From: Patescibacteria group bacterium | Lineage (GTDB): Bacteria > Patescibacteriota > Minisyncoccia > Phycocordibacterales > Phycocordibacteraceae | DNA length: 64,000 nt | Reading direction: 5' to 3' | Assembly: GCA_004322365.1 (NCBI GenBank) | Contig: SCTS01000006.1 | Location: 160,756 to 224,755, forward strand | Shown: positions 51,242 to 64,000 of the stretch, piece by piece | How the letters are laid out: every line of letters starts with the position of its first letter | Numbering within the stretch: the stretch's first letter is position 1 | Program-made: the position numbers and the translations under genes | Notes under the pieces: model-generated | Told to the model about the DNA's origin: nothing | The model's input: the letters and a program-made list of their open reading frames with translations, nothing else | The model's database searches: none

Positions 51242-51593
51242 TTTGTTTTAGGGAACCGTATTCATTCAGCAGAACTGAGATGAAGGGTATTCGCCTTTTG
51301 AGCCCTGTTCCGTATCTCGAGAGCCGAGACCTTAAAGAAAAAGCGCTTCGAAAAGCTATTGCTAGGATAGCAGTAAAGAAGGTGTCGGTCAAATTAACAG
51401 AAATCAAAGAAAATATGGCTTCCCGTCTATCTTTTGAGGCCCCGACTAATTGCCGGACTTTGGGGGAAGAAAAGGTCCCGGGAGAGGTTTCCCAGTAAGC
51501 CCAAGGGCTTCGAGTAATGCTGGTATAGCTTCTTTTGGAGGAACTGAAAAAGAAGTCGAACCTTTGTACGCCATAAGAATCGAAAAAAAAAAA

Positions 51594-53720: not shown

Positions 53721-54401
53721 TTATACTTTTGGACGTGACGCATCATCAGCGAAAATATCGCCACGATAAATCCAAACCTTAACGCCGATTTTACCCAAAG
53801 GAAGTTGTGCTGCTATCTGTGCATAATCAATGTCTGCACGGAATGTCTGAAGAGGGATACGCCCACGCTTCAATTCTTCAGTGCGTGACATAGAGCCTGA
53901 ACCGAGCATGCCAGCAACAGCAATACGCACACCCTTCACATCTCTATTTGCCATAACCTTATCAATTGTCTGTTTCAAAACACGTCGGAAAGGAAGGCGC
54001 TTCTCGAGACTCTCCACCACCATACCTGCAACAATTGCTGCGTTAGATTCAGGTGATCGAACTTCAATAACATCAAGGTGAAGCGCAGGCACTGATGAAA
54101 GTTTCATGCTTTTGAGCATTTGGTGCAAATCCTTTTTCAATTTTGTTGCACCTTCACCTGAACGACCAATAACCATACCTGGGCGTGCTGTATGAATTTG
54201 AACTCGCAAATCTTTTTGGGAACGCTCAATTTCAACATGCGACACATAGCTTCCACGAAGACGCTTTGTCAAAAATTGACGAATCATTGCATCAGTGCGA
54301 ATGAATTCACGGTTCTTTTTTGCAGAACCAGCAAACCAACGACTCTGCCAATCCCTAAGGATGCCAAGACGATGCGCGTATGGATGAACGATTTTTGTCA
54401 T
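53721..54401 (-). CDS. rpsC: 30S ribosomal protein S3
   Basis: 226 aa with a KH domain. Confidence 0.9.
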   Translation of the reverse strand: MTKIVHPYAHRLGILRDWQSRWFAGSAKKNREFIRTDAMIRQFLTKRLRGSYVSHVEIERSQKDLRVQIHTARPGMVIGRSGEGATKLKKDLHQMLKSMKLSSVPALHLDVIEVRSPESNAAIVAGMVVESLEKRLPFRRVLKQTIDKVMANRDVKGVRIAVAGMLGSGSMSRTEELKRGRIPLQTFRADIDYAQIAAQLPLGKIGVKVWIYRGDIFADDASRPKV

Positions 54402-54404
54402 AAA

Positions 54405-54746
54405 TTATTTTTTCTTCTTTGGCTTTGCTTTCCCTAAAGTCACTGTTATATGGCTCATTCTATGGCGAATTGGGGAAGAACGACCGAACGCACGAGGCAT
54501 CGAGCGCATAGCAACTAAACCTTTATTGACTGTAATATTTTGGACAACAAGAGTTCTTCCGTCTTCACCTTGCTTCTCCGCGTTTGCGACAGCAGACGAA
54601 ATGAGTTTAGCCATAGGAGTTGCGGCGCGCTTATCCAAGAACTTTAGTGCGAGAAGTGCCTCCTCGACACCCTTACCCTTCACAAGCTCAGTAACGAGTC
54701 TGGTTTTTCGTGGAGTCTGCTTGTAGTTGGAAAGTGTCGCCTTCAT
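54405..54746 (-). CDS. rplV: 50S ribosomal protein L22
   Basis: 113 aa. Confidence 0.9.
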   Translation of the reverse strand: MKATLSNYKQTPRKTRLVTELVKGKGVEEALLALKFLDKRAATPMAKLISSAVANAEKQGEDGRTLVVQNITVNKGLVAMRSMPRAFGRSSPIRHRMSHITVTLGKAKPKKKK

Positions 54747-54771
54747 ATGCTGATTCTAGATGTATGAAAAA

Positions 54772-55155
54772 TTACTTCTTAGCTCCGGCCTTAGCCTTAC
54801 CATCAGCAGGTGCCTTTGCTGCTTGTGCTGCTGCAATTTCAGACTCTTTCTTCTTCTGCTCAAGTTCTTTCTGCATCTTACCTCCGTGACGAGTAAACTT
54901 CGTCGTTGATGAAAATTCACCAAGGCGGTGCCCTACCATTTCCTCTGTAACAAACACTTCAGGAAAATCCTTTCCGTTATGAACAAGGAAAACGAAACCA
55001 ACCATTTCAGGGCTGATTTCAGATGCACGAGCCCATGTCTTAATAGGTGCTGTTACGCCTGGCTTCTTACCCTCAATCTTCTTTAGAAGCTTGTGGGCGA
55101 CATACGGACCTTTTTTAAGTGAACGAGACATTGTTGTAGTTTTGACCCAAATCAA
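54772..55155 (-). CDS. rpsS: 30S ribosomal protein S19 (Lys/Ala-rich C-terminal extension)
   Basis: Core [11 protein letters not shown]...HNGKDF...VGHRLGEF. The likely start is the internal ATG near 55131. Confidence 0.9.
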
Positions 55156-55226
55156 GTGCGCACTAAGAAAAATGCGCCCTCACGAGCTTTGAGCATACTA
55201 TCCCAATCACCCGCCCACTGTCAATC

Positions 55227-56025
55227 TCATTTGTGCAACCTCCGGAGGTTGCACAAATGAGCACTGAATCCGAAATGAAAAAATTTACAAAATGATACCT
55301 TCTAATTCTTCAGCTAGAAGTTTTTTGCTGGTTGTTTTAACAAAGTCGGCGTAATTACTTTTTGCTGTTATAGCAAACTGCCCTGTGATAATTTCGGGGA
55401 CAATGAGCCCTCCCCATCGGTTCGCGTCACTAAAATCTTGGAGCGACGACCAAGGATACTCGAATTCCTTTCCTGACCATTCTCGTATGTCACTGGGGTT
55501 TCTATGAATATAGGCGGATGCATATAAAAGCTGGGAATCTGTTTTTACATGCACCGCTTTGTACGGACCCTGAAATACATGCCCCGAGGTTTCATACTTA
55601 GTATTATAATATTTTGTATATCCGTCAGATACGCGTTGCATGTAGCGTGCCATTCCCCCTTCAATAGTTTCTTTGACCAACAAGTGAAAATGGTTGGACA
55701 TCAGACAAAAACAAACCACTTCCACAAAACGACTCTCGATAATGGACTCGATATCTTCGTTAGGAACGGAAAAACCAATTTCTGGAATAAAACTTTCAGT
55801 AATGCGCGATAGGTTTTTAAATTGATGGGGAGATTGCAGAAACAAAACATTAAAAAGGAACCGGTGCCAGTCACGCTTATCTTTAAAAATAGTCTGCCTA
55901 TGCGCACCGCGATTGAACACATGATAGTACTCCCCCGGAGCAATACCTTCTCGTGACTTTGATACGGCCTTACGCATTACTGTAGGCTAGCATATCCCTG
56001 TGCAACCTCCGGAGGTTGCACAGGG
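55227..56025 (-). mobile_element. IS200/IS605-like minimal element / REP-RAYT unit: Y1 HUH transposase flanked by near-identical perfect palindromic hairpins
   Basis: Left palindrome tcatttgtgcaacctccggaggttgcacaaatga at 55227-55260. Right palindrome ccctgtgcaacctccggaggttgcacaggg at 55996-56025. The two share a 24-nt core TGTGCAACCTCCGGAGGTTGCACA. Sits between rpsS and rplB. Confidence 0.75.
55285..55977 (-). CDS. Y1 (HUH) transposase, IS200-like / REP-associated tyrosine transposase (RAYT)
   Basis: 230 aa with YHVFNRG, an HuH motif MSNHFHLLV and a catalytic Tyr region GYTKYYN. Has a C-terminal extension relative to 150-aa IS200 TnpA. Confidence 0.75.
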   Translation of the reverse strand: MRKAVSKSREGIAPGEYYHVFNRGAHRQTIFKDKRDWHRFLFNVLFLQSPHQFKNLSRITESFIPEIGFSVPNEDIESIIESRFVEVVCFCLMSNHFHLLVKETIEGGMARYMQRVSDGYTKYYNTKYETSGHVFQGPYKAVHVKTDSQLLYASAYIHRNPSDIREWSGKEFEYPWSSLQDFSDANRWGGLIVPEIITGQFAITAKSNYADFVKTTSKKLLAEELEGIIL

Positions 56026-56055
56026 GGTTCTGAAAACAAGAAAAATTACTTCGAA

Positions 56056-59000
56056 TTAGAACTCATCGAAGCGAGGAGTAACACCTATAGTCACTGACTT
56101 TGAGCTCGGCACTCCTCCAGTCAAACAATTCATGGTGTAGGTGCTTTGTTGATTTATGATCACAGACTGTGCGCCCGAAAAAGCTGTTGAGGAAAGACCG
56201 GGACCGGAGATTGAACATGTATCAGGAGTGCCTACCACTCCCCACGACACCGTTGCAGGGTCGCCTTGGCGAACAGTAACACTTGGACTTATGGTGAGAG
56301 TAATGTCGGCAGGATTTACAGTAACCGTGGCACTTGAAGATGCGCTTCGTGTACCATTAGTACAAGTGATACCGTAGGTTGTAGTAACTGGAGGGGAAAC
56401 AGTAACCGAACCAACGGTTGCGCCCCCTGTTGGGAAGTTAGTTCCTGTACAAGAAGTGGTGTAAGAAGATGTCCAGTCAATGCGTGGAGAGGTTACTCCC
56501 TTAATAATAACAGGTGGTGAGACAGTAATAATCACTGTTGGAGTGTTCTGTATAGTTCCCGTTGCGCATGTCGCAGTAACTGACCCTGTACCTGAGGTCA
56601 CAATAACTGAAGCCGATTTCGTACCAGCGCTACCATATGTCTTCGAGACAGTTGCACCTGTGCCAAGAAGTCCGTCAGTACCACTCCACACATAGGTGTA
56701 TGAACCTACTCCTCCTGAAGGTGTGACAGACCATGTTAATGAATCCCCCACATATCCAGTACTTGGTGATGGGGAACACGATGCTGAGAGTGCTCCGGGG
56801 TTCACTGATAATGATGTCCACGCACTACAATTATCAAGCTCATTGGACTCACTCACTTCATTAAGTGGTGTGTCGGCACAAAAACGCATCTGGTACGAAC
56901 CCGGTGAAGGAAATGTGTAGCTACCTGTTTGTGTACCGCTACCCCCAGCTACAATCGATATTCGACTTAAAGCAATCTTAATTGACGTATTGGCTTCGGC
57001 AAAATTAATAAAGAAACTAAAAATACGACTCCAAATAGAATCTGATTGGGTGAGGTAATTATTAAGACAAGCACTATCTGAACTAAGGCACACATACATC
57101 CTTGAACCGAAAACTGGAGTCGCTGCACCACCAATATTGGTAACACCCGCAGTGAATGTGGTATTTACTCCTGCGGTTACACTCGTAGGAGAAAGAGACC
57201 CTGTAGTTAAATCTGCCAAAGAAACGCCAACTACTACAGAGTTGGAGCAACTTGCGGTTGTTGATAGTGGCGCTGACGCAGTTGCCATACCTGCAAAATA
57301 ATTATGTCTCGTTGTGTTACCAGTAGTTGAGGTTTTTGAGGCAAGAGAGGCATTCGAATATGCTTCGTAGCGATAGTAGGTGTTAACTGGTTGCCCAGTT
57401 GAATTCACAGTCTCTCGTACATCAACACTACAGCAACCACCTGCAGGAGTTATATCTGCACACGATCCTGCCATAGAGCTAGTATTGAGAGTAAATCCGA
57501 CACCATCCTCGGTAGTACCATAACTACCTACCTTCGTACCTCCAGAGCAGTGCTTTTCCCCTTGAAGCGTAACAGAAGTTGCGCCGGAAGGGCTAGTGAT
57601 AGTGATTGAGGCTGTTTTTGTACCGACAGTTGTATATGTTTTTGAAATAGACGCAACAGCACCCGAGAGACTATCAGTACCACTCCATAAATACGTGTAT
57701 GAACCAGTTCCACCCGATGCAGAGGCAGTCCAAGCCACGGGACTACCGGTATAGACACTCGTTGGAGATACCGAACATGACCCAGAAAGAGTGCCAGGGG
57801 GAGGTGAATTTACCTGAACATTTGCGGTAGCGAAAGCGGTCTGGGGAGTCGTAGCAGGAGAGGCACCAACACACTGGTACACAGCTGTTTCAATTTGACA
57901 CGAATCATTGGCCACATTTATTTTACATACATTACCGCTTCCTACCCCACTGCAAGATTTCCCTGCTGGACTTGAGGGGCACCATGCTAATCCAGAATAA
58001 GCAATTTCAAGACTTGACACTCTGGTTACACCTACATTACAAGCAAAATCACTGATGTCATTATATGAAAGCTGCCACGTACCTGATGACGCGGCACTCG
58101 CCCCCGTACAGGTAATAGAATAGTTAGTCGTTGCACTTAACGCTCCAGTCGAAATAGAGCCTGATGTGTTACCTCCAGTCTCAAATCCACCACCAACACA
58201 AGAAATCGCATTGGTTGAGGACCATGTGAGAGTAGCGGAAGATCCAGAATTCAAACTTGTTGGAGTTGCAGAGAGTGAAACCGTGGGTGATGCAATAGCA
58301 CTAACAGTAACTGTTTGCGACGCTGAGGCGGACCCACCAGCACCAGTACATGAAACAAGATAACTGGTTGTTTGCGATGGAGTAACTGTTACAGAGCCTG
58401 CGGTTGCAGAGGATGTTGAGAAGTTAGTTCCTGTGCAGGAAGTTGCATTAGTTGAACTCCAGGTGATAACTGACGACGCACCCACTACAAGAGAAGTTGG
58501 GTTTGCAGAAAGTGATGCAGTTGGTGCAACCACAGGCGCACTAACGGTAACCGTTGCGAAAGAAGACACTGTCTGGGAACCATCGGTACAGGTAATTGAA
58601 TAAGTTATTGAAGAGGGAGGTGAAACGATAAGTGAACCTGCAGTAGCACCTCCCGTTGAAAAGTTGGTGCCGGTGCACGAAGTCACATAATCCGAAGTCC
58701 ATGTTAAGAGAGCCGAACCTCCACTAGATATAGAAGAAGGAGTGGCAATAATGCCTACATAGGGTGTTGTTGGTTCCACAACACAACCTTCATCTATGTC
58801 GCCGATAGTCGCAACCTGGTAGGTACTTTGCACTGTATAACTATCCCCGCCATATACTGCGCGAAATGCTGCTTCACCTGCACTACCTGGAGGGAAAGGA
58901 TTAGTCACTACTGTGTAGTCATACTCCCATGTGGTACCTGTACAGTCACCGCCTCCTGTTGGACCAGCATATGCTAATTGAGGAATCGCACTGAATACAG

Positions 59001-59079
59001 CGAGCATAAAAATGGCACCAATGAAAAAAGTTTTAAAAGCGGGAATAGTAAGTTGGCGGAGAGCTTGCATTGCATTCAT
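56056..59079 (-). CDS. Very large secreted protein with tandem roughly 70-aa Ig-like repeats (Thr/Ser/Gly-rich)
   Basis: 1007-aa uninterrupted ORF with a signal peptide. Repeats such as ..SSGGSALLTWTSDYVTSCTGTNFSTGGATAGSLIVSPPSSITYSITCTDGSQTVSS..TVTVS and ..ITWSSTNATSCTGTNFSTSSATAGSVTVTPSQTTSYLVSCTG.. recur at least five times. Confidence 0.7.
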   Translation of the reverse strand: MNAMQALRQLTIPAFKTFFIGAIFMLAVFSAIPQLAYAGPTGGGDCTGTTWEYDYTVVTNPFPPGSAGEAAFRAVYGGDSYTVQSTYQVATIGDIDEGCVVEPTTPYVGIIATPSSISSGGSALLTWTSDYVTSCTGTNFSTGGATAGSLIVSPPSSITYSITCTDGSQTVSSFATVTVSAPVVAPTASLSANPTSLVVGASSVITWSSTNATSCTGTNFSTSSATAGSVTVTPSQTTSYLVSCTGAGGSASASQTVTVSAIASPTVSLSATPTSLNSGSSATLTWSSTNAISCVGGGFETGGNTSGSISTGALSATTNYSITCTGASAASSGTWQLSYNDISDFACNVGVTRVSSLEIAYSGLAWCPSSPAGKSCSGVGSGNVCKINVANDSCQIETAVYQCVGASPATTPQTAFATANVQVNSPPPGTLSGSCSVSPTSVYTGSPVAWTASASGGTGSYTYLWSGTDSLSGAVASISKTYTTVGTKTASITITSPSGATSVTLQGEKHCSGGTKVGSYGTTEDGVGFTLNTSSMAGSCADITPAGGCCSVDVRETVNSTGQPVNTYYRYEAYSNASLASKTSTTGNTTRHNYFAGMATASAPLSTTASCSNSVVVGVSLADLTTGSLSPTSVTAGVNTTFTAGVTNIGGAATPVFGSRMYVCLSSDSACLNNYLTQSDSIWSRIFSFFINFAEANTSIKIALSRISIVAGGSGTQTGSYTFPSPGSYQMRFCADTPLNEVSESNELDNCSAWTSLSVNPGALSASCSPSPSTGYVGDSLTWSVTPSGGVGSYTYVWSGTDGLLGTGATVSKTYGSAGTKSASVIVTSGTGSVTATCATGTIQNTPTVIITVSPPVIIKGVTSPRIDWTSSYTTSCTGTNFPTGGATVGSVTVSPPVTTTYGITCTNGTRSASSSATVTVNPADITLTISPSVTVRQGDPATVSWGVVGTPDTCSISGPGLSSTAFSGAQSVIINQQSTYTMNCLTGGVPSSKSVTIGVTPRFDEF

Positions 59080-59134
59080 TGTACAGGGAATTTATACCTA
59101 CCGTTAAAGTAAAGTCGCGAGAGGTGGAATAACA

Positions 59135-59164
59135 AAAAACTCTCCACATGGTGGAGAGTTTTTT
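59135..59164 (-). terminator. Rho-independent terminator immediately 3' of rplB
   Basis: Sequence aaaactctccac atg gtggagagtttt flanked by A/T runs. Confidence 0.6.
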
Positions 59165-59167
59165 GTT

Positions 59168-60031
59168 TTAGCTTCCTGATTTTCGCTTTTTCCCGACACG
59201 ACGACGAGAAACAATGAATGGATTTGAGTATTTCTTTGGAGTTCGTGTTTTCTGACCCTTTCCTGACGGCTTGCCCCACATGGTGCGCTGTCTTCGGTGA
59301 CCACGACCCTGACGGCCTTCACCTCCTCCATGTGGGTGGTCCACTGGGTTCATTGCAGTACCACGAACCGTTGGGCGAATACCCATGTGTCGTGCGCGAC
59401 CTGCTTTACCAATGATGACGAGGTGATGTGCATCATTTGAAACTTCACCGATAGATGCCCACGCAGTATCAACTACTTTACGAACTTCAGTCGAAGGGAG
59501 TTTTATTTGAGCGTAGCCAGCATCGAGCGCAATCAATTCAGCGTGGTTACCTGCACTTCGTGCCATTTTTGCACCACCATTTGCATGCACTTCAATATTG
59601 TAGATGAATGTACCGATTGGGATGTTCTTCAAAGGAAGTCGGTTACCGGGAGTGATAGGAGCAGTTTCTGAAGTAATGACTTTATCGCCAACCTTTAAAG
59701 ATTTTGGTGCGAGTATGTATCGGCGCTCACCGTCAACATCTACAATACGAGCAATAAAGCCTGTGCGTGTAGGATCGTATTCAATGTGCTCAACTTTTCC
59801 TGGAATATTTTTCTTAGCGAACATGAAATCAACCACACGCATCTGTTGCTTGTGTCCACCTCCTTGGTGACGGGTGGTGATGCGACCAAGTGAGTTTCTA
59901 CCTGCGTGATTTTTCTTTCCTTTCGTCAAAGATTTCAATGGCTTGCCGGTCGTCAAGACATCGCGATAACGAATCACGCTCATGTGGCGAGTGGATGCGG
60001 TTCGTGCTTTGTAATTTCGTGTAGTAGACAT
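59168..60031 (-). CDS. rplB: 50S ribosomal protein L2
   Basis: 287 aa. Confidence 0.9.
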   Translation of the reverse strand: MSTTRNYKARTASTRHMSVIRYRDVLTTGKPLKSLTKGKKNHAGRNSLGRITTRHQGGGHKQQMRVVDFMFAKKNIPGKVEHIEYDPTRTGFIARIVDVDGERRYILAPKSLKVGDKVITSETAPITPGNRLPLKNIPIGTFIYNIEVHANGGAKMARSAGNHAELIALDAGYAQIKLPSTEVRKVVDTAWASIGEVSNDAHHLVIIGKAGRARHMGIRPTVRGTAMNPVDHPHGGGEGRQGRGHRRQRTMWGKPSGKGQKTRTPKKYSNPFIVSRRRVGKKRKSGS

Positions 60032-60048
60032 ATTCGTGTATTAAAAAT

Positions 60049-60447
60049 TTATGAGAAACGGATAGTGTCTCCTTTCTTTAAAAATACCAAAGCCTTTCTT
60101 GTTGCAGAAGTCTTACCAAAACCTCGCTTCTTTCTCATTTGCACTCGCTTTGCTGGAGTATTCACTACATTTACCTTGATTGGCATAACTTTGTAGAGAG
60201 CATTGACTGCCATAGCGACATCCTTCTTTGTTGCTGATTTGCGAATATCAAATGTATAGACTCCGTTTGCAGTCATGTTTGCTGCCTTCTCCGTAATGCG
60301 GGGACGCACCAAAATATTTGCGTACTCAGCAAGAGCTGAAGGACGATCAGTTTTTTTAGTAGCAGAAACTTTTGTTTCAACTTTTTTGACTTCTGCCTTT
60401 GGAGCATCAGTCTTCTTTGTATTCGTTTTTGATTTAAAAATTGCCAT
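60049..60447 (-). CDS. rplW: 50S ribosomal protein L23 (Lys-rich N-terminal extension)
   Basis: 132 aa. Confidence 0.85.
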   Translation of the reverse strand: MAIFKSKTNTKKTDAPKAEVKKVETKVSATKKTDRPSALAEYANILVRPRITEKAANMTANGVYTFDIRKSATKKDVAMAVNALYKVMPIKVNVVNTPAKRVQMRKKRGFGKTSATRKALVFLKKGDTIRFS

Positions 60448-60453
60448 AAAAAT

Positions 60454-61143
60454 TTATTTCTCTAGTCGTTCTGTAAGCGTTTTAACAGACACCTTCGGAT
60501 CTACAACGAGAATATAACGGTAGGTGAGCAAGTCAACTGGATTTGCGTTTCTCGCCTCATCAACCATCACGTTCTTCATGTTGCGGAAGCTCTTTACTAC
60601 CGCGACATCATGCTTCGAAAGAAGGATGAGTGCTGCGTTGTTTCTGCGTGTAGCGAGCTCAGCAAATCCTTCTATTTTAGCAAGGCCACCGAGGGTTGCC
60701 TTTGCATCCTTTGTTTTTGGAGCCTTGAAAGAAAGCGAGTCAACAAAAATCATTTTTCCTTTACGGAGTTTTTCTGAAAGAACTGTTGCGACTGCCTTCG
60801 CACGCATCTTCTTATTGATTTTCTGTGAGAAATCGCGTTCCTTTACTGGTCCGTGAGTCGTACCTCCTCCTCTCCAGATTGGAGATCGAATAGAACCGTG
60901 ACGAGCTCGGCCAGTACCCTTTTGCTTCCATGGCTTCTTACCGCCACCACGTACCTCACCACGACCCTTCGTGTGAGCAACAGGAGTGCGAGCGTTCGCT
61001 TGCATAGCAAGAACAACCTGATGCACCAAAGCATCATTTCTCTTTGCATCAAAAATGCCCTCTGGGAGTTCAATCTCCCCTACTTCTTTTGCGCTTGTAT
61101 TGTAAATTGAAGCTTTCATATATTTATTTTCCTCGAATTTCAA
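60454..61143 (-). CDS. rplD: 50S ribosomal protein L4
   Basis: 229 aa. Confidence 0.9.
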   Translation of the reverse strand: MKFEENKYMKASIYNTSAKEVGEIELPEGIFDAKRNDALVHQVVLAMQANARTPVAHTKGRGEVRGGGKKPWKQKGTGRARHGSIRSPIWRGGGTTHGPVKERDFSQKINKKMRAKAVATVLSEKLRKGKMIFVDSLSFKAPKTKDAKATLGGLAKIEGFAELATRRNNAALILLSKHDVAVVKSFRNMKNVMVDEARNANPVDLLTYRYILVVDPKVSVKTLTERLEK

Positions 61144-61732
61144 TCACGGTACCTTTGCGTCCTGGAACTGCTCCACGAACAAAAATTTCATTCTTTACGC
61201 CGTCAACACGAATGACCTCAAGGTTTGGAACAGTCACACGGTCAGAACCCATTCGTCCTGCCATGCGCATACCTTTCACCACACGACCTCCTGCTCGGCC
61301 TGGACCTCCTCCTGAAGAACCGCGCTCTCTTTCAGAATGTTTCTGACCGTGTGTGCGGGGACCTCCTTTGAAGCCGTAGCGCTTCACAACGCCCTGGAAA
61401 CCTTTTCCTTTTGAAATTCCTGAAACGACAACGCTTTCACCTTCTGAGAAAGCAGTGACATCAAAAGTTGCACCTACTTCAAGTGCCTCAGCACCATCAA
61501 AGCGAAATTCACGAAGTCCACGAACATTTCCCTTAGGTTGCTGTGGTTTTGCAATGCGTGATTGCTTCTGCTCACCGTAACCCACCTGTACTGCCTTGTA
61601 GCCGTCAGTATCAATATTCTTAACTTGGGTCACTGTAACCTTTGGTGCATGTATAACGGTAACAGGCACAGCGTGACCCGCTGCATTGAAGACCTGTGTC
61701 ATTCCTTGTTTTGTTCCTATGATGAATTTCAT
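61124..61732 (-). CDS. rplC: 50S ribosomal protein L3
   Basis: 202 aa. Confidence 0.9.
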   Translation of the reverse strand: MKFIIGTKQGMTQVFNAAGHAVPVTVIHAPKVTVTQVKNIDTDGYKAVQVGYGEQKQSRIAKPQQPKGNVRGLREFRFDGAEALEVGATFDVTAFSEGESVVVSGISKGKGFQGVVKRYGFKGGPRTHGQKHSERERGSSGGGPGRAGGRVVKGMRMAGRMGSDRVTVPNLEVIRVDGVKNEIFVRGAVPGRKGTVIEIRGK

Positions 61733-62416
61733 TAGTTTTTTGTTGGCGAGTCCTTGAGTCTAGAAAAATCTAACCCTGTTAAATCCCCGTTCCGGGGACG
61801 CTTCGTACTCGAAGCGTATTTAACAGGGTTCTGAGAATCTAATCGCTACGCTCAAGATTCTCTAGAAAAAAACGCACACCGGTATTCGCAGTGTGCGATA
61901 TACCATTGGTTTACCCTGAGCTTGTCGAAGGGTCCGATCCTTTCGATGTTTCGGAGGCAAACGTAGCGTTTCAGCTACTATACACAAAGCATCTAAAAGA
62001 TGCAAGAAACCAAGTACCGAGACGAAACCTAGGTACTTTTACACGTATCTGATACAGATATTTCAGCCGTGAAGTATGCTTTGAACACGAGACCGCGAAA
62101 GAGGCTCGGTTGGAAAACTCCTCTAGAAATCTAGAGTGGTGCACTTACCTGTTGAACTTAAGATAGAAATACTTGACAGAAGGTTTCTAATATGCTATTA
62201 TTCACACATCGTTTAAACACTTAAATTTTTTCTATGAAAGAGGGACTCAAATTAATTTCACGACAAGGTGGTTTTAAAACGACCGGTCCAGGTTTAGAAC
62301 ACTGCCCCGATCCTGATGCTATCGTATCCGGTTATGTATACAATAAACTTAACAAATTATGGTATAAAAAGGCCTAAGAACAGGAGAAAATAGAACGTGT
62401 ACGCAACACAAACTAA

Positions 62417-62442
62417 AAACCGCCCTTTTGGGCGGTTTTTTC
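62417..62442. terminator. Strong bidirectional hairpin terminator inside the rpsJ-rplC spacer
   Basis: Sequence aaaaaccgcccttttgggcggtttttt. Confidence 0.65.
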
Positions 62443-62594
62443 GATCTTTTTTACAGCCCTCCACAATTTCTCTGAGATGAGAAATTGGGAGGACTTAAGA
62501 AAATCTAAGCAAGCTTTGCTTTAAGGTCTCTAAAGGCCGAAGCGAAACGCTTCGGCACTCAACAAATTCTAAATCGCAACGCGATTAAGAATTT

Positions 62595-62990
62595 CTAGAG
62601 CATTCTGACATCAACCGAGACGCCGGATGGCAATGACAAGTTCGTCAAAGCATCAATGATTTTTGGAGTTGGATTCACAATGTCCAAGATACGCTTATGA
62701 GTACGAATCTCAAACTGCTCACGAGCATCTTTGTAGACGAACGATGAGGCATTGACCGTGAATTTCTTGATATCAGTTGGAAGTGGGATGGGCCCTACAA
62801 CCTCCGCATCAAAGCGAAGCGCTGTGTCAATAATTTGCTTTACCGAAGCATCCAAGACTTTGTGGTCATATGCGCGAACACGGAGACGCAATTTGCCTAC
62901 ACCCGCAACTGGAGCCGCAGATTTCGCTGTCTTTGCTCCTGCTTTTGGTGCCTTGCGGACAGGCGTCTTTTTTTCTTTAGTGTCGGACAT
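62595..62990 (-). CDS. rpsJ: 30S ribosomal protein S10 (Lys/Ala-rich N-terminal extension)
   Basis: 131 aa with core KLRLRVRAYDHKVLDASVKQIIDTA. Confidence 0.9.
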   Translation of the reverse strand: MSDTKEKKTPVRKAPKAGAKTAKSAAPVAGVGKLRLRVRAYDHKVLDASVKQIIDTALRFDAEVVGPIPLPTDIKKFTVNASSFVYKDAREQFEIRTHKRILDIVNPTPKIIDALTNLSLPSGVSVDVRML

Positions 62991-63019
62991 AGATTTTCAA
63001 AGTTCGTGAATACTAGGCT

Positions 63020-64000
<981 letters not shown>

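Follow-up and report, generated by a model that had tools for sequence, protein, structure and literature searches.

Within the ribosomal protein gene cluster of the 64,000-nucleotide stretch of DNA analysed here (64 kb, referred to as the window), which belongs to a genome of the Patescibacteria (Parcubacteria), we identified a large gene between rplB and rpsS, co-oriented with both. It is followed by a gene for a RAYT-like transposase, the order being rplB, large gene, RAYT-like gene and rpsS, and about 4.0 kb of non-ribosomal DNA separates the rplB stop codon from the start of rpsS. The encoded protein is 100% identical to NCBI EPO14_03135, and the G+C content of the gene (0.43-0.49) resembles that of its surroundings without deviation. 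The locus comprises the following features:

59168-60031, minus strand: rplB (ribosomal protein L2; Pfam Ribosomal_L2_N and L2_C, E 2e-29 and 4e-47), the final gene of the upstream ribosomal transcription unit
59131-59167, minus strand: predicted intrinsic terminator immediately downstream of the rplB stop codon
59078-59107, minus strand: promoter-like element of the large gene, from a promoter scan and conservation
56056-59079, minus strand: large open reading frame of 1007 aa, uninterrupted in the list of open reading frames
55996-56025, no strand assigned: 5′ palindrome of the RAYT unit, core GTGCAACCTCCGGAGGTTGCAC at 56000-56021
55285-55977, minus strand: RAYT-like Y1 (HUH) transposase gene, 230 aa, PF01797
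55228-55259, no strand assigned: 3′ palindrome of the RAYT unit, core at 55233-55254, abutting the rpsS promoter
55195-55224, minus strand: rpsS promoter-like element TTGACA-18-TAGTAT, matching 10 of 12 consensus positions
55158-55177, minus strand: rpsS leader hairpin with T-run, found by scan, its position kept across relatives
54772-55131, minus strand: rpsS (ribosomal protein S19; Pfam Ribosomal_S19, E 2e-30), the opening gene of the downstream ribosomal unit

The product, of roughly 100 kDa, is rich in Ser, Thr, Gly and Ala, acidic and low in Lys, and could be divided into these parts, all encoded on the minus strand:

58966-59079: signal peptide (aa 1-38), cleavage AYA↓GP, read by eye
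58768-58965: N-terminal domain (aa 39-104), GGxC-x-G-xxWEYxYT...VYGGDSY
58072-58767: Ig-like repeats R1-R3 (aa 105-336), each with a pair of conserved Cys
57778-58071: Cys-rich module (aa 337-434), low model confidence
57565-57777: PKD domain 1 (aa 435-505), one of two PF18911 stretches
57238-57564: module X (aa 506-614), Cys-containing, pLDDT below 50
56794-57237: CARDB domain (aa 615-762), PF07705
56545-56793: PKD domain 2 (aa 763-845), pLDDT 83-91
56077-56544: Ig-like repeats R4 and R5 (aa 846-1001)
56059-56076: C-terminal tail PRFDEF-COOH, consensus P-x-F/Y-x-E-x

The original prediction described a secreted protein with multiple Ig-like repeats, and this description holds. Judged by inspection only, the N-terminus has the n, h and c regions of a Sec signal peptide, with basic residues R8 and K17, a 17-residue hydrophobic core TFFIGAIFMLAVFSAIP and the AYA↓GP site, and the A-x-A↓G/A-P cleavage motif is retained in orthologues. 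Internal repeats gave no matches in a self-BLAST of the protein, which was replaced by an HMM built from hand-cut repeats. This HMM identified exactly five copies (aa 105-181, 185-261, 264-336, 846-923 and 924-1001) with E values of 1e-28 to 1e-34 each and matched nothing in the rest of the protein. Since the copies fall at aa 105-336 and 846-1001, the repeats are arranged as three N-terminal and two C-terminal units and not as one tandem array. Pairwise identities among R1-R4 are 37-58%, and R5, the best-conserved part of the family, shares 23-26% with the others. The 78-aa repeat is predicted to have the seven strands in two sheets of an Ig-like beta-sandwich and resembles Ig-like domains of solved structure, and the AF2 models of R1-R3 are beta-sandwiches with pLDDT of about 70-85, in agreement with the predicted fold.

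Pfam recognised only PKD and CARDB in the whole protein, and both passed the Pfam cut-offs: PF18911 with 33.6 bits (cut-off 27) in two stretches, the best at aa 790-838 in PKD domain 2, and PF07705 with 33.1 bits (cut-off 22.7), where aa 622-752 correspond to profile positions 2-99 of 101. A motif of PKD domain 1, WSGTDSLSG, is invariant (WSGTDxLSG throughout the family). The CARDB domain is interrupted by an insertion of ~45 aa, which contains a Cys-x6-Cys loop followed by a hydrophobic helix (IWSRIFSFFINFA) and whose presence is mosaic across orthologues and paralogues. The N-terminal domain, the Cys-rich module and module X are lineage-specific, were poorly modelled by AF2 and gave nothing usable in Pfam; no ligand-binding domain was identified by Pfam in the N-terminal and Cys-rich modules. 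The N-terminal domain is also common to a separate family of 786-aa paralogues and its dN/dS (0.17-0.19) is among the highest of the protein; the highest value against the relative L002 was that of the Cys-rich module (0.32). Searches of the protein against NCBIfam gave no match at E<=1, and phmmer against PDB sequences returned nothing for this protein or for the RAYT.

The sequence signals around the gene point to a break in the ribosomal operon. The hairpin at 59131-59167 has a core stem CUCUCCAC/GUGGAGAG at 59140-59158 and a U-run at 59134-59139, and folds with -23.6 kcal/mol compared to -4.9 +/- 2.1 for shuffled sequences (z = -8.75). A hairpin with T-run, built from differing stem sequences, occupies the same place in 5-6 relatives (L001, L002, L004, L005, L006). 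This combination of a stable G+C-rich hairpin, a U-run and a conserved position argues for an intrinsic terminator, which a consensus scanner had missed because A/T pairs lengthen the stem. Downstream of it, a putative promoter of the large gene consists of the -35 hexamer TTAACG (59102-59107), an 18-nt spacer and an extended -10 element TG-TACAAT (59078-59085). TGTACAAT is kept in five genomes (the window, L001, L002, L005 and L087), always 7 nt before a conserved ATG, and TTAACR is found 18 nt upstream of it in the window, L002 and L087. Because the -10 hexamer overlaps the first ATG of the open reading frame and orthologues align from M4, we place the true start probably at the ATG at 59070 (M4), which would give a protein of 1004 aa and a leaderless mRNA. 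Promoter, leaderless start and termination at the gene are thus predicted from sequence conservation. The rpsS promoter-like element, for its part, is kept in 6/6 relatives including L004, which has no RAYT, and a similar element was found in L008-L018. The fold of the rpsS leader hairpin has a z-score of only -1.8. An Rfam scan of 54000-64000 gave no ribosomal protein leader family and only sub-threshold matches to Phe/Leu leaders, which are the terminators.

The original prediction is thus supported in placing a terminator after rplB and an own promoter before the large gene, and in splitting the S10 run between rplB and rpsS. Its claim that the gene is insulated by terminators stands for the upstream side; downstream of the open reading frame there is no canonical terminator, and the 5′ palindrome of the RAYT unit, which has no U-run, is found there instead. 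This layout bears on the idea that the large gene in effect belongs to the ribosomal operon, with read-through coupling its expression to growth rate and thereby conserving its position. Such coupling would fit with the shared orientation, the lack of a canonical terminator between the gene and rpsS, the stop codon in L004 that lies 25 nt from the rpsS promoter, and the second paralogue family, which in L088 is likewise located amid translation genes (L25, L31, RF1, S2, EF-Ts). However, rplB is followed in each of the relatives by a highly stable terminator with U-run, the predicted dedicated promoter and leaderless start are conserved and rpsS retains a near-consensus promoter of its own, and we therefore consider the coupling unlikely.

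An orthologue was found in the same gap between rplB and rpsS in six other assemblies (L001, L002, L004, L005, L006 and L087), which are independent and originate from NCBI, JGI and Logan. Their rplB genes are 87-99% and their large proteins 45-91% identical to those of the window. Together with the window these seven genomes make up the whole, small clade found with the gene in the gap, and all of them carry it. In the comparison with L001 the dS of the large gene (0.44) is like that of rplB (0.52) and rpsS (0.42), and nucleotide identity is unbroken across both borders of the gene. Its dN/dS is 0.11-0.13, that of rplB and rpsS 0.02-0.03, and purifying selection extends over its entire length. 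Because the orthologues share the gap, dS matches the flanks and dN/dS is about 0.12, the sequence comparison indicates that the gene is inherited vertically with its neighbours and is under selection. That the gene is a chimera of the assembly or a pseudogene in decay is an idea with nothing specific in its favour other than the general risk of repeat-rich open reading frames in metagenome bins, and it can practically be dismissed: seven independent assemblies agree, the frame is intact, dN/dS is 0.12 and the identity to L001 runs on at the borders where the original prediction had considered a chimera.

The surroundings of the gene are more fluid. Gaps hold one to three cargo genes with the RAYT present or absent, and the gap measures 4.0 kb in the window but 7.5 kb in L002 despite 98% identical rplB genes. 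Among the matches listed in a contig scan with rplB, rplB and rpsS lie 183-1111 bp apart in 9 relatives from the Paceibacteria, compared to a median distance of 34 bp (maximum 144) for 68 other bacteria, the outgroup being genomes with rplB at 66% identity or less. The gaps of the distant Paceibacteria contain unrelated small open reading frames, terminators and promoters, and neither the large gene nor the RAYT. A metagenome scan for more distant relatives in the gap found none with patterns from the PKD motif, which mostly fetched unrelated PKD proteins; the only two true orthologue loci it returned were both already known.

The RAYT-like gene scored 33.7 bits for PF01797 (Y1_Tnp; cut-off 23), its HUH motif NHFHLL and the sequence YxSAYIHRNP are invariant in 6 genomes and its dN/dS against L002 is 0.11, although at 29.6 bits it remains below the equivalog cut-off of NCBIfam NF047646 (80 bits). 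The gene is flanked on either side by the same 22-nt palindrome, which occurs in exactly 2 copies in the window compared to 0 expected and whose 5′ copy folds into a hairpin of -25.2 kcal/mol. With 3 mismatches allowed, a search of the 64 kb for dispersed REP copies returned only these 2, and in the related loci exact copies were restricted to the RAYT flanks. L001 and L006 have different palindromes, each paired with a divergent RAYT. Between the window and L001 the RAYT cassette is 52-67% identical and its flanks 84-97%, by which the cassette of RAYT and palindromes appears to have been swapped in one close relative.

These observations might suggest a recent accessory island, in which horizontal transfer or transposition jointly brought in the large gene and the RAYT and broke up an S10 operon that had been intact. 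The adjacent Y1 transposase with its palindromes, the unlike gap content of close relatives and the divergent cassette are in line with this scenario. We nevertheless regard it as very unlikely, since the large gene occupies the site in 7/7 genomes of the clade, its dS is the same as for the ribosomal genes on either side, its G+C content is not deviant, L004 has the large gene and no RAYT, and the operon break with terminator and promoter also exists in the distant relatives that have neither. RAYTs with passenger genes are not known either, which we also count against it. The accessory island of the original prediction accordingly finds no support if taken to mean a recent or mobile acquisition, and six assemblies with an orthologue at the same position, a finding that the original prediction had itself named as a refutation, speak against accessory status of the gene; what stands is the fluid gap content and the swapped RAYT cassette. 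On the available sequences, only this cassette and the number of cargo genes seem to behave like an island.

The protein ends in ...GVTPRFDEF without a hydrophobic segment, and none of the known surface anchors we looked for (LPXTG/sortase, C-terminal TM helix, SLH, T9SS CTD) was present. Among candidate signals, a T9SS-like C-terminal sorting domain was rejected for want of a model match and as a system of another phylum, and a type IV pilin-like signal for want of a G↓FTLIE-type motif. P1002, E1006 and F1007 of the tail are invariant in 13 family members, and 40/120 of the closest database matches end in this tail. When the C-terminal domain served as a profile query, most matches were multi-copy repeat proteins, so that this search measures the repeat family, not the tail; only 4/134 top members of the general repeat family have it. 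The tail P-x-F-x-E-F-COOH also occurs on other exported proteins of Patescibacteria, and tail-bearing genes usually adjoin a gene for a beta-propeller-like protein that is membrane-anchored at its N-terminus and translationally coupled to them in relatives. Further pairs of partner and tail genes came from the metagenome scan. Next to the large gene and within the 64 kb of the window no such partner was found, NCBIfam gave nothing for the partner proteins, and literature searches returned no description of the locus or of the tail.

The explanation we consider fairly probable is a genuine, vertically inherited gene with its own promoter that encodes an exported multi-domain protein and is situated in an ancestral operon gap. 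The upstream ribosomal unit would stop at the terminator after rplB and the downstream unit would begin ahead of rpsS, with a strong promoter and a leader of its own, while the large gene would be read from its extended -10 promoter as a leaderless mRNA. The break between rplB and rpsS would be ancestral to a wide Paceibacteria group, with cargo that differs by lineage. In the family-level clade of the window this cargo would be the protein family described here, often joined by the second paralogue and by a small beta-propeller-like protein with a membrane anchor, and a domesticated RAYT between its own two palindromes would adjoin the rpsS promoter.

The product would be exported by Sec and would consist of about ten beta-sandwich domains in a row: five widespread disulfide-containing 78-aa Ig-like modules, two PKD, one CARDB and three lineage-specific ones. 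It may be kept on the cell surface via the conserved C-terminal Ig-like domain and the P-x-F-x-E-F tail, the membrane-anchored beta-propeller-like partner being the likely holder, and the faster-evolving N-terminal modules may extend away from the cell as a fibre for attachment or of the envelope. Since no known anchor motif is present and the partner is absent from the 64 kb, the protein could also be released. Most likely it is a cell-surface attachment or envelope protein, and from its sequence a role in host attachment is plausible. Alternatively it might be a structural subunit of the envelope (S-layer or sheath) and not an adhesin for host attachment, its location beside strongly expressed genes and its strong promoter reflecting a need for abundance. 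The composition, the conserved C-terminal module with the coupled membrane protein and the purifying selection along the entire length are compatible with such a subunit. On the other hand, the number and order of domains are mosaic, with one extra repeat in P0003, a repeat count that differs between close relatives and a variable CARDB insertion, which is more adhesin-like than lattice-like, and neither Pfam nor NCBIfam gave a match to an S-layer family. We judge the structural subunit to be somewhat unlikely.

Going beyond the exported protein in its operon gap, we tentatively propose, as a possibility that we favour less, that the R5-type domain with its P-x-F/Y-x-E-x-COOH tail and the coupled propeller form a so far undescribed system by which Patescibacteria sort or anchor proteins for surface display, and which serves several exported families, the present one included. 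Separately, and equally tentatively, the site between rplB and rpsS may be a class-wide cargo slot that holds lineage-specific surface genes and is permissive through the ancestral split of S10 by terminator and promoter.

Most Patescibacteria have not been cultured, and the group is regarded as living attached to other cells. The protein family offers a concrete and conserved candidate for partner attachment, with a predicted promoter, start codon and domain map, and the shared tail with the coupled membrane protein gives a testable handle on surface retention without known anchors. Furthermore, adjacency of S10 and spc genes in this lineage need not equal a single operon, because sequence signals indicate a break between rplB and rpsS and possibly elsewhere. 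This matters for marker-gene synteny and for the inference of expression from metagenomes. No general principle is changed by the locus.

Large beta-rich repeat proteins in Parcubacteria genomes have been noted as likely adhesins (PMC4508563). The protein resembles fibrillar adhesins in its signal peptide, the repeated beta-sandwiches (Ig-like, PKD and CARDB) of its long stalk and its rapid modular evolution with mosaic repeat numbers and domains. It differs from them in that it has no recognised anchor or adhesive tip domain, in its family-specific P-x-F-x-E-F-COOH tail and in the location of its gene inside a ribosomal cluster. The best whole-chain fold matches in Foldseek were the multi-Ig-like proteins GhpA, mastigoneme and DSCAM. 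The top match (E 1e-17) was GhpA, the grappling-hook protein of Aureispira (PDB 9fly, 9flp, 9flw), which is much larger (numbered fragments reach residue 5009), comes from a predator of the Bacteroidota and has no phmmer sequence match to the protein; its function of catching prey flagella is not transferable.

In SoxY, a protein with an Ig-like domain, the conserved flexible C-terminal peptide is the functional, partner-docking part. The likeness to this sulfur carrier (PDB 2nnc) is a structural analogy only, at 12% sequence identity, and its tail is GGCGG with a reactive Cys as opposed to PRFDEF here, where there is no sox context. The neighbouring transposase gene shares with RAYTs the Y1/HUH domain, in which the HUH and Tyr motifs are intact, the single copy, the purifying selection and the flanking by the same palindrome, which changes along with the protein. 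It departs from them by its sub-equivalog score, the lack of dispersed REPs within the 64 kb and its fixed site at the rpsS promoter.

For Leptospira an unusual composition of the S10-spc-alpha locus has been reported (PMC2481283). Clusters of this type with non-ribosomal genes are alike in that foreign content is tolerated and conserved within the lineage. The present locus differs in that the break is specifically between rplB and rpsS with lineage-specific cargo, and in that its layout of terminator, promoter and leader is common to a class-level group. The kind of protein is ordinary, its setting among ribosomal genes is unusual and conserved in the lineage, and the location together with the module of tail and partner is modestly new.

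The non-ribosomal DNA between the rplB stop and the rpsS start spans about 4.0 kb in the window and carries two genes, arranged as follows:

59168-60031, minus strand: rplB, preceded by tuf, rpsJ, rplC, rplD and rplW in that order
56056-59079, minus strand: 1007-aa ORF (the big gene), after rplB
55285-55977, minus strand: Y1-transposase-like ORF of 230 aa (RAYT, REP-associated tyrosine transposase-like), between the 1007-aa ORF and rpsS
54772-55131, minus strand: rpsS, followed by rplV, rpsC and the remaining S10/spc genes

The 1007-aa ORF is 100% identical to the NCBI entry 'hypothetical protein EPO14_03135 [Patescibacteria group bacterium]' on a 280-kb contig. When the loci of its closest homologues were looked up, an orthologue was found between rplB and rpsS in six other assemblies:

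L001 (JGI): big gene and RAYT only, as in the window
L002 (GCA_007378985.1, Greene0714_7): rplB, 219-aa membrane protein, second paralogue (921 aa), orthologue, RAYT, rpsS
L004 (Logan): rplB, 219-aa protein, one big gene, rpsS; RAYT absent
L005 (GCA_040384205.1): big gene and RAYT only
L006 (GCA_040384425.1): two other membrane proteins upstream of the big gene
L087 (GCA_041658485.1): rplB, 220-aa membrane protein, second paralogue (825 aa), orthologue, RAYT, rpsS

The original prediction had described an accessory island; what was found is the same gene at the same position in other assemblies, the very outcome it had named as refuting. Identity of the six assemblies to the window is 87-99% for L2 and 89-98% for S19, and only 45-91% for the big protein. 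Synonymous divergence from L001 is nevertheless matching (big gene 0.44, rplB 0.52, rpsS 0.42), with a dN/dS of 0.11 for the big gene and 0.02-0.03 for the ribosomal genes, and the G+C content of the big gene does not deviate from its surroundings. Together with the shared location, these comparisons show that the big gene has been transmitted vertically along with the genes around it and that purifying selection acts on it; a recent acquisition, a pseudogene and an assembly chimera are thereby ruled out.

Despite this vertical inheritance the content of the gap is fluid. Orthologues and paralogues are mosaics, with an N-terminal domain of two types, a CARDB insertion that is present or absent and, in the family member P0003, one extra repeat. 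The RAYT-like protein matches Y1_Tnp, scores below the cut-off of the NCBIfam equivalog, has HUH and Tyr motifs that are invariant in six genomes, and shows a dN/dS of 0.11 against L002. The gene has one copy of a 22-nt palindrome on each side; the 64 kb contain no further copy, and no dispersed set of REPs was seen there. In L001 and L006 the RAYTs are divergent (70% and 58% identical), and the palindromes that accompany them also differ. Between window 55228-56025 and L001 11010-11800, the RAYT and both palindromes are 52-67% nucleotide-identical and the DNA on either side 84-97%. Since this drop in identity falls exactly between the palindromes, it points to replacement of a RAYT-plus-palindrome cassette at one fixed site beside the rpsS promoter, within vertically inherited surroundings.

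The gap also appears to contain its own transcription signals. After the rplB stop the window has a hairpin with T-run (-23.6 kcal/mol, z -8.75), and L001, L002, L004, L005 and L006 each have one in the corresponding position, with a different stem sequence. Downstream of it an extended -10 element, TGTACAAT, is found in the window, L001, L002, L005 and L087, with TTAACR 18 nt upstream of it in the window, L002 and L087. An ATG always follows TGTACAAT after 7 nt, and the orthologue alignment begins at that ATG. Because the ORF's first ATG in the window shares nucleotides with the -10 hexamer, translation most likely starts at the ATG at 59070 (M4), on an mRNA that is most likely leaderless or nearly so, judging from conservation and the usual spacing between -10 and start site. 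In L002, L004 and L006, where the gap opens with another gene, a similar TGTA(G/C)ACT element precedes that gene. No canonical terminator was found 3' of the big gene in the window, the 5' palindrome of the RAYT occupying that place. Immediately after the 3' palindrome lies a near-consensus promoter-like element, TTGACA-18-TAGTAT (55195-55224), separated from rpsS by a short leader with hairpin and T-run. Element and leader are kept in six of six relatives, including L004, which lacks the RAYT. The leader has no Rfam match and a fold z-score of only -1.8 in the window; it may represent an attenuator or a ribosomal-protein leader of an uncharacterised type. The same arrangement (window 55131-55224) is seen at the same position in L001-L006 and in the more distant L008-L018, genomes at only 62-66% L2 identity.

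An L2 scan over species-representative genomes revealed an rplB-rpsS gap of 183-1111 bp in at least nine Paceibacteria-type genomes (62-66% L2 identity; those with both genes placed, among the matches listed). The gap in 68 other bacteria has a median of 34 bp and a maximum of 144 bp, again among the matches listed. The enlarged gaps contain unrelated small ORFs, and most have a terminator-like hairpin after rplB and a near-consensus promoter with leader hairpin before rpsS. The break is probably older than its cargo. In the simplest history, the S10 operon would have been split at this junction in an ancestor of the Paceibacteria-type group, the junction would then have become a permissive slot, and the window's clade would have fixed this surface-protein family in it.

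Gaps also occur at other junctions of the ribosomal gene run. The rpsJ-rplC gap (61733-62594, 862 bp) has no ORF of at least 60 aa and contains the following:

62415-62440: bidirectional terminator-like hairpin
61873-61897: second hairpin with T-run
62069-62134, plus strand: 21-aa ORF, MKYALNTRPRKRLGWKTPLEI

We take this peptide to resemble the C-terminal end of an IS30-type transposase, and the ORF may thus be a decayed IS remnant. Relatives have different small ORFs in this gap. The rplE-rpsN junction (51242-51593) is a gap of about 350 bp with just short ORFs on either strand; relatives show a 48-72-aa ORF or larger insertions there. One of these insertions, in L005 (GCA_040384205.1, 15912-17739), separates rplE from rpsN in the spc cluster by genes for shikimate kinase and threonine synthase, a further case of non-ribosomal DNA placed among this clade's ribosomal genes.

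The big protein begins with a putative Sec signal peptide, recognised by inspection (R8/K17, hydrophobic core TFFIGAIFMLAVFSAIP, AYA|GP cleavage site), and the pattern is kept in the aligned orthologues. The original description of the protein was sound except that it assumed a single repeat array: an HMM built from the repeats found exactly five copies (R1-R5), each 72-79 aa long, of which three form a block at aa 105-336 and two a block at aa 846-1001. All have two conserved Cys; pairwise identity is 37-58% among R1-R4 and 23-26% between R5 and the others. Between the two blocks lie:

aa 337-434: Cys-rich module
aa 435-505: first PKD domain
aa 506-614: module without assigned family
aa 615-762: CARDB domain, with an insertion of about 45 aa containing a hydrophobic helix
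aa 763-845: second PKD domain

Ser and Thr make up 33% of the protein, which has 30 Cys and few charged residues. AlphaFold2, given a 13-sequence alignment, predicted a beads-on-a-string chain of beta-sandwiches, with good confidence for the repeats and the second PKD domain and poor confidence for the lineage-specific modules. Foldseek matches of the model are other Ig-like chains (GhpA grappling hook, mastigoneme, DSCAM, alpha-2-macroglobulin). The repeat unit had no match in Pfam, NCBIfam or PDB sequences but is common, with profile hits in 14,682 representative proteins, a few of which contain it dozens of times.

Conservation within the family is highest in the last domain and the final residues, where P1002, E1006 and F1007 are invariant. 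Among the matches listed, the 120 closest database proteins include 40 in which such a domain is followed by a terminal P-x-F/Y-x-E-x-COOH; the other domains of these 40 differ, and those with a source name are all Patescibacteria. Within the general repeat family, just 4 of the top 134 proteins carry this tail. Just upstream of tail-bearing genes, at 0-13 nt or with overlapping codons, there is typically a gene for a 220-340-aa protein with one N-terminal membrane helix and a beta-rich, weakly PD40/TolB-like ectodomain. The pair was found in L002, L004, L006, L087, L088, L093, L104, L108 and L109, with a variant tail in L098, and by locus tags in two further NCBI genomes. Partner genes are located as follows:

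L002: 4526-5185
L004: 7334-7993
L006: 7035-7997
L087: 6327-6989
L088: 4962-5987

The membrane-anchored, beta-propeller-like partner often ends in Y-R-(I/V/F)-I-P, and the paired gene encodes an exported Ig-repeat protein ending in P-x-F-x-E-F. Given this recurrent pairing, we propose that the tail would dock the exported big protein onto the membrane-anchored partner. The gap of the window contains no partner gene, and the 219-, 320- and 471-aa gap proteins, used as queries, had no match anywhere in the 64 kb. L005 also lacks the partner in the gap, but has such a pair elsewhere in its genome. A 786-aa paralogue family (L088, 2757-11218) shares the N-terminal domain of the big protein and ends in the tail ILPAFREQ; in L088 it too lies among translation genes, with L25 upstream and L31, RF1, S2 and EF-Ts downstream.

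Multi-Ig-like surface proteins in Parcubacteria genomes have already been noted as likely adhesins (PMC4508563); neither this locus nor the tail was found described in the literature. The big protein probably works like a fibrillar adhesin or multi-Ig-like surface protein. It has the stalk of fibrillar adhesins but neither a known anchor nor a recognisable adhesive tip, and is therefore placed only in this broad kind. A role as an S-layer or envelope component is conceivable but less likely. On comparative sequence evidence, the big protein stands out within the fibrillar-adhesin or multi-Ig-like kind only by where its gene lies, a conserved gap in the ribosomal cluster, and by its tail/partner module.
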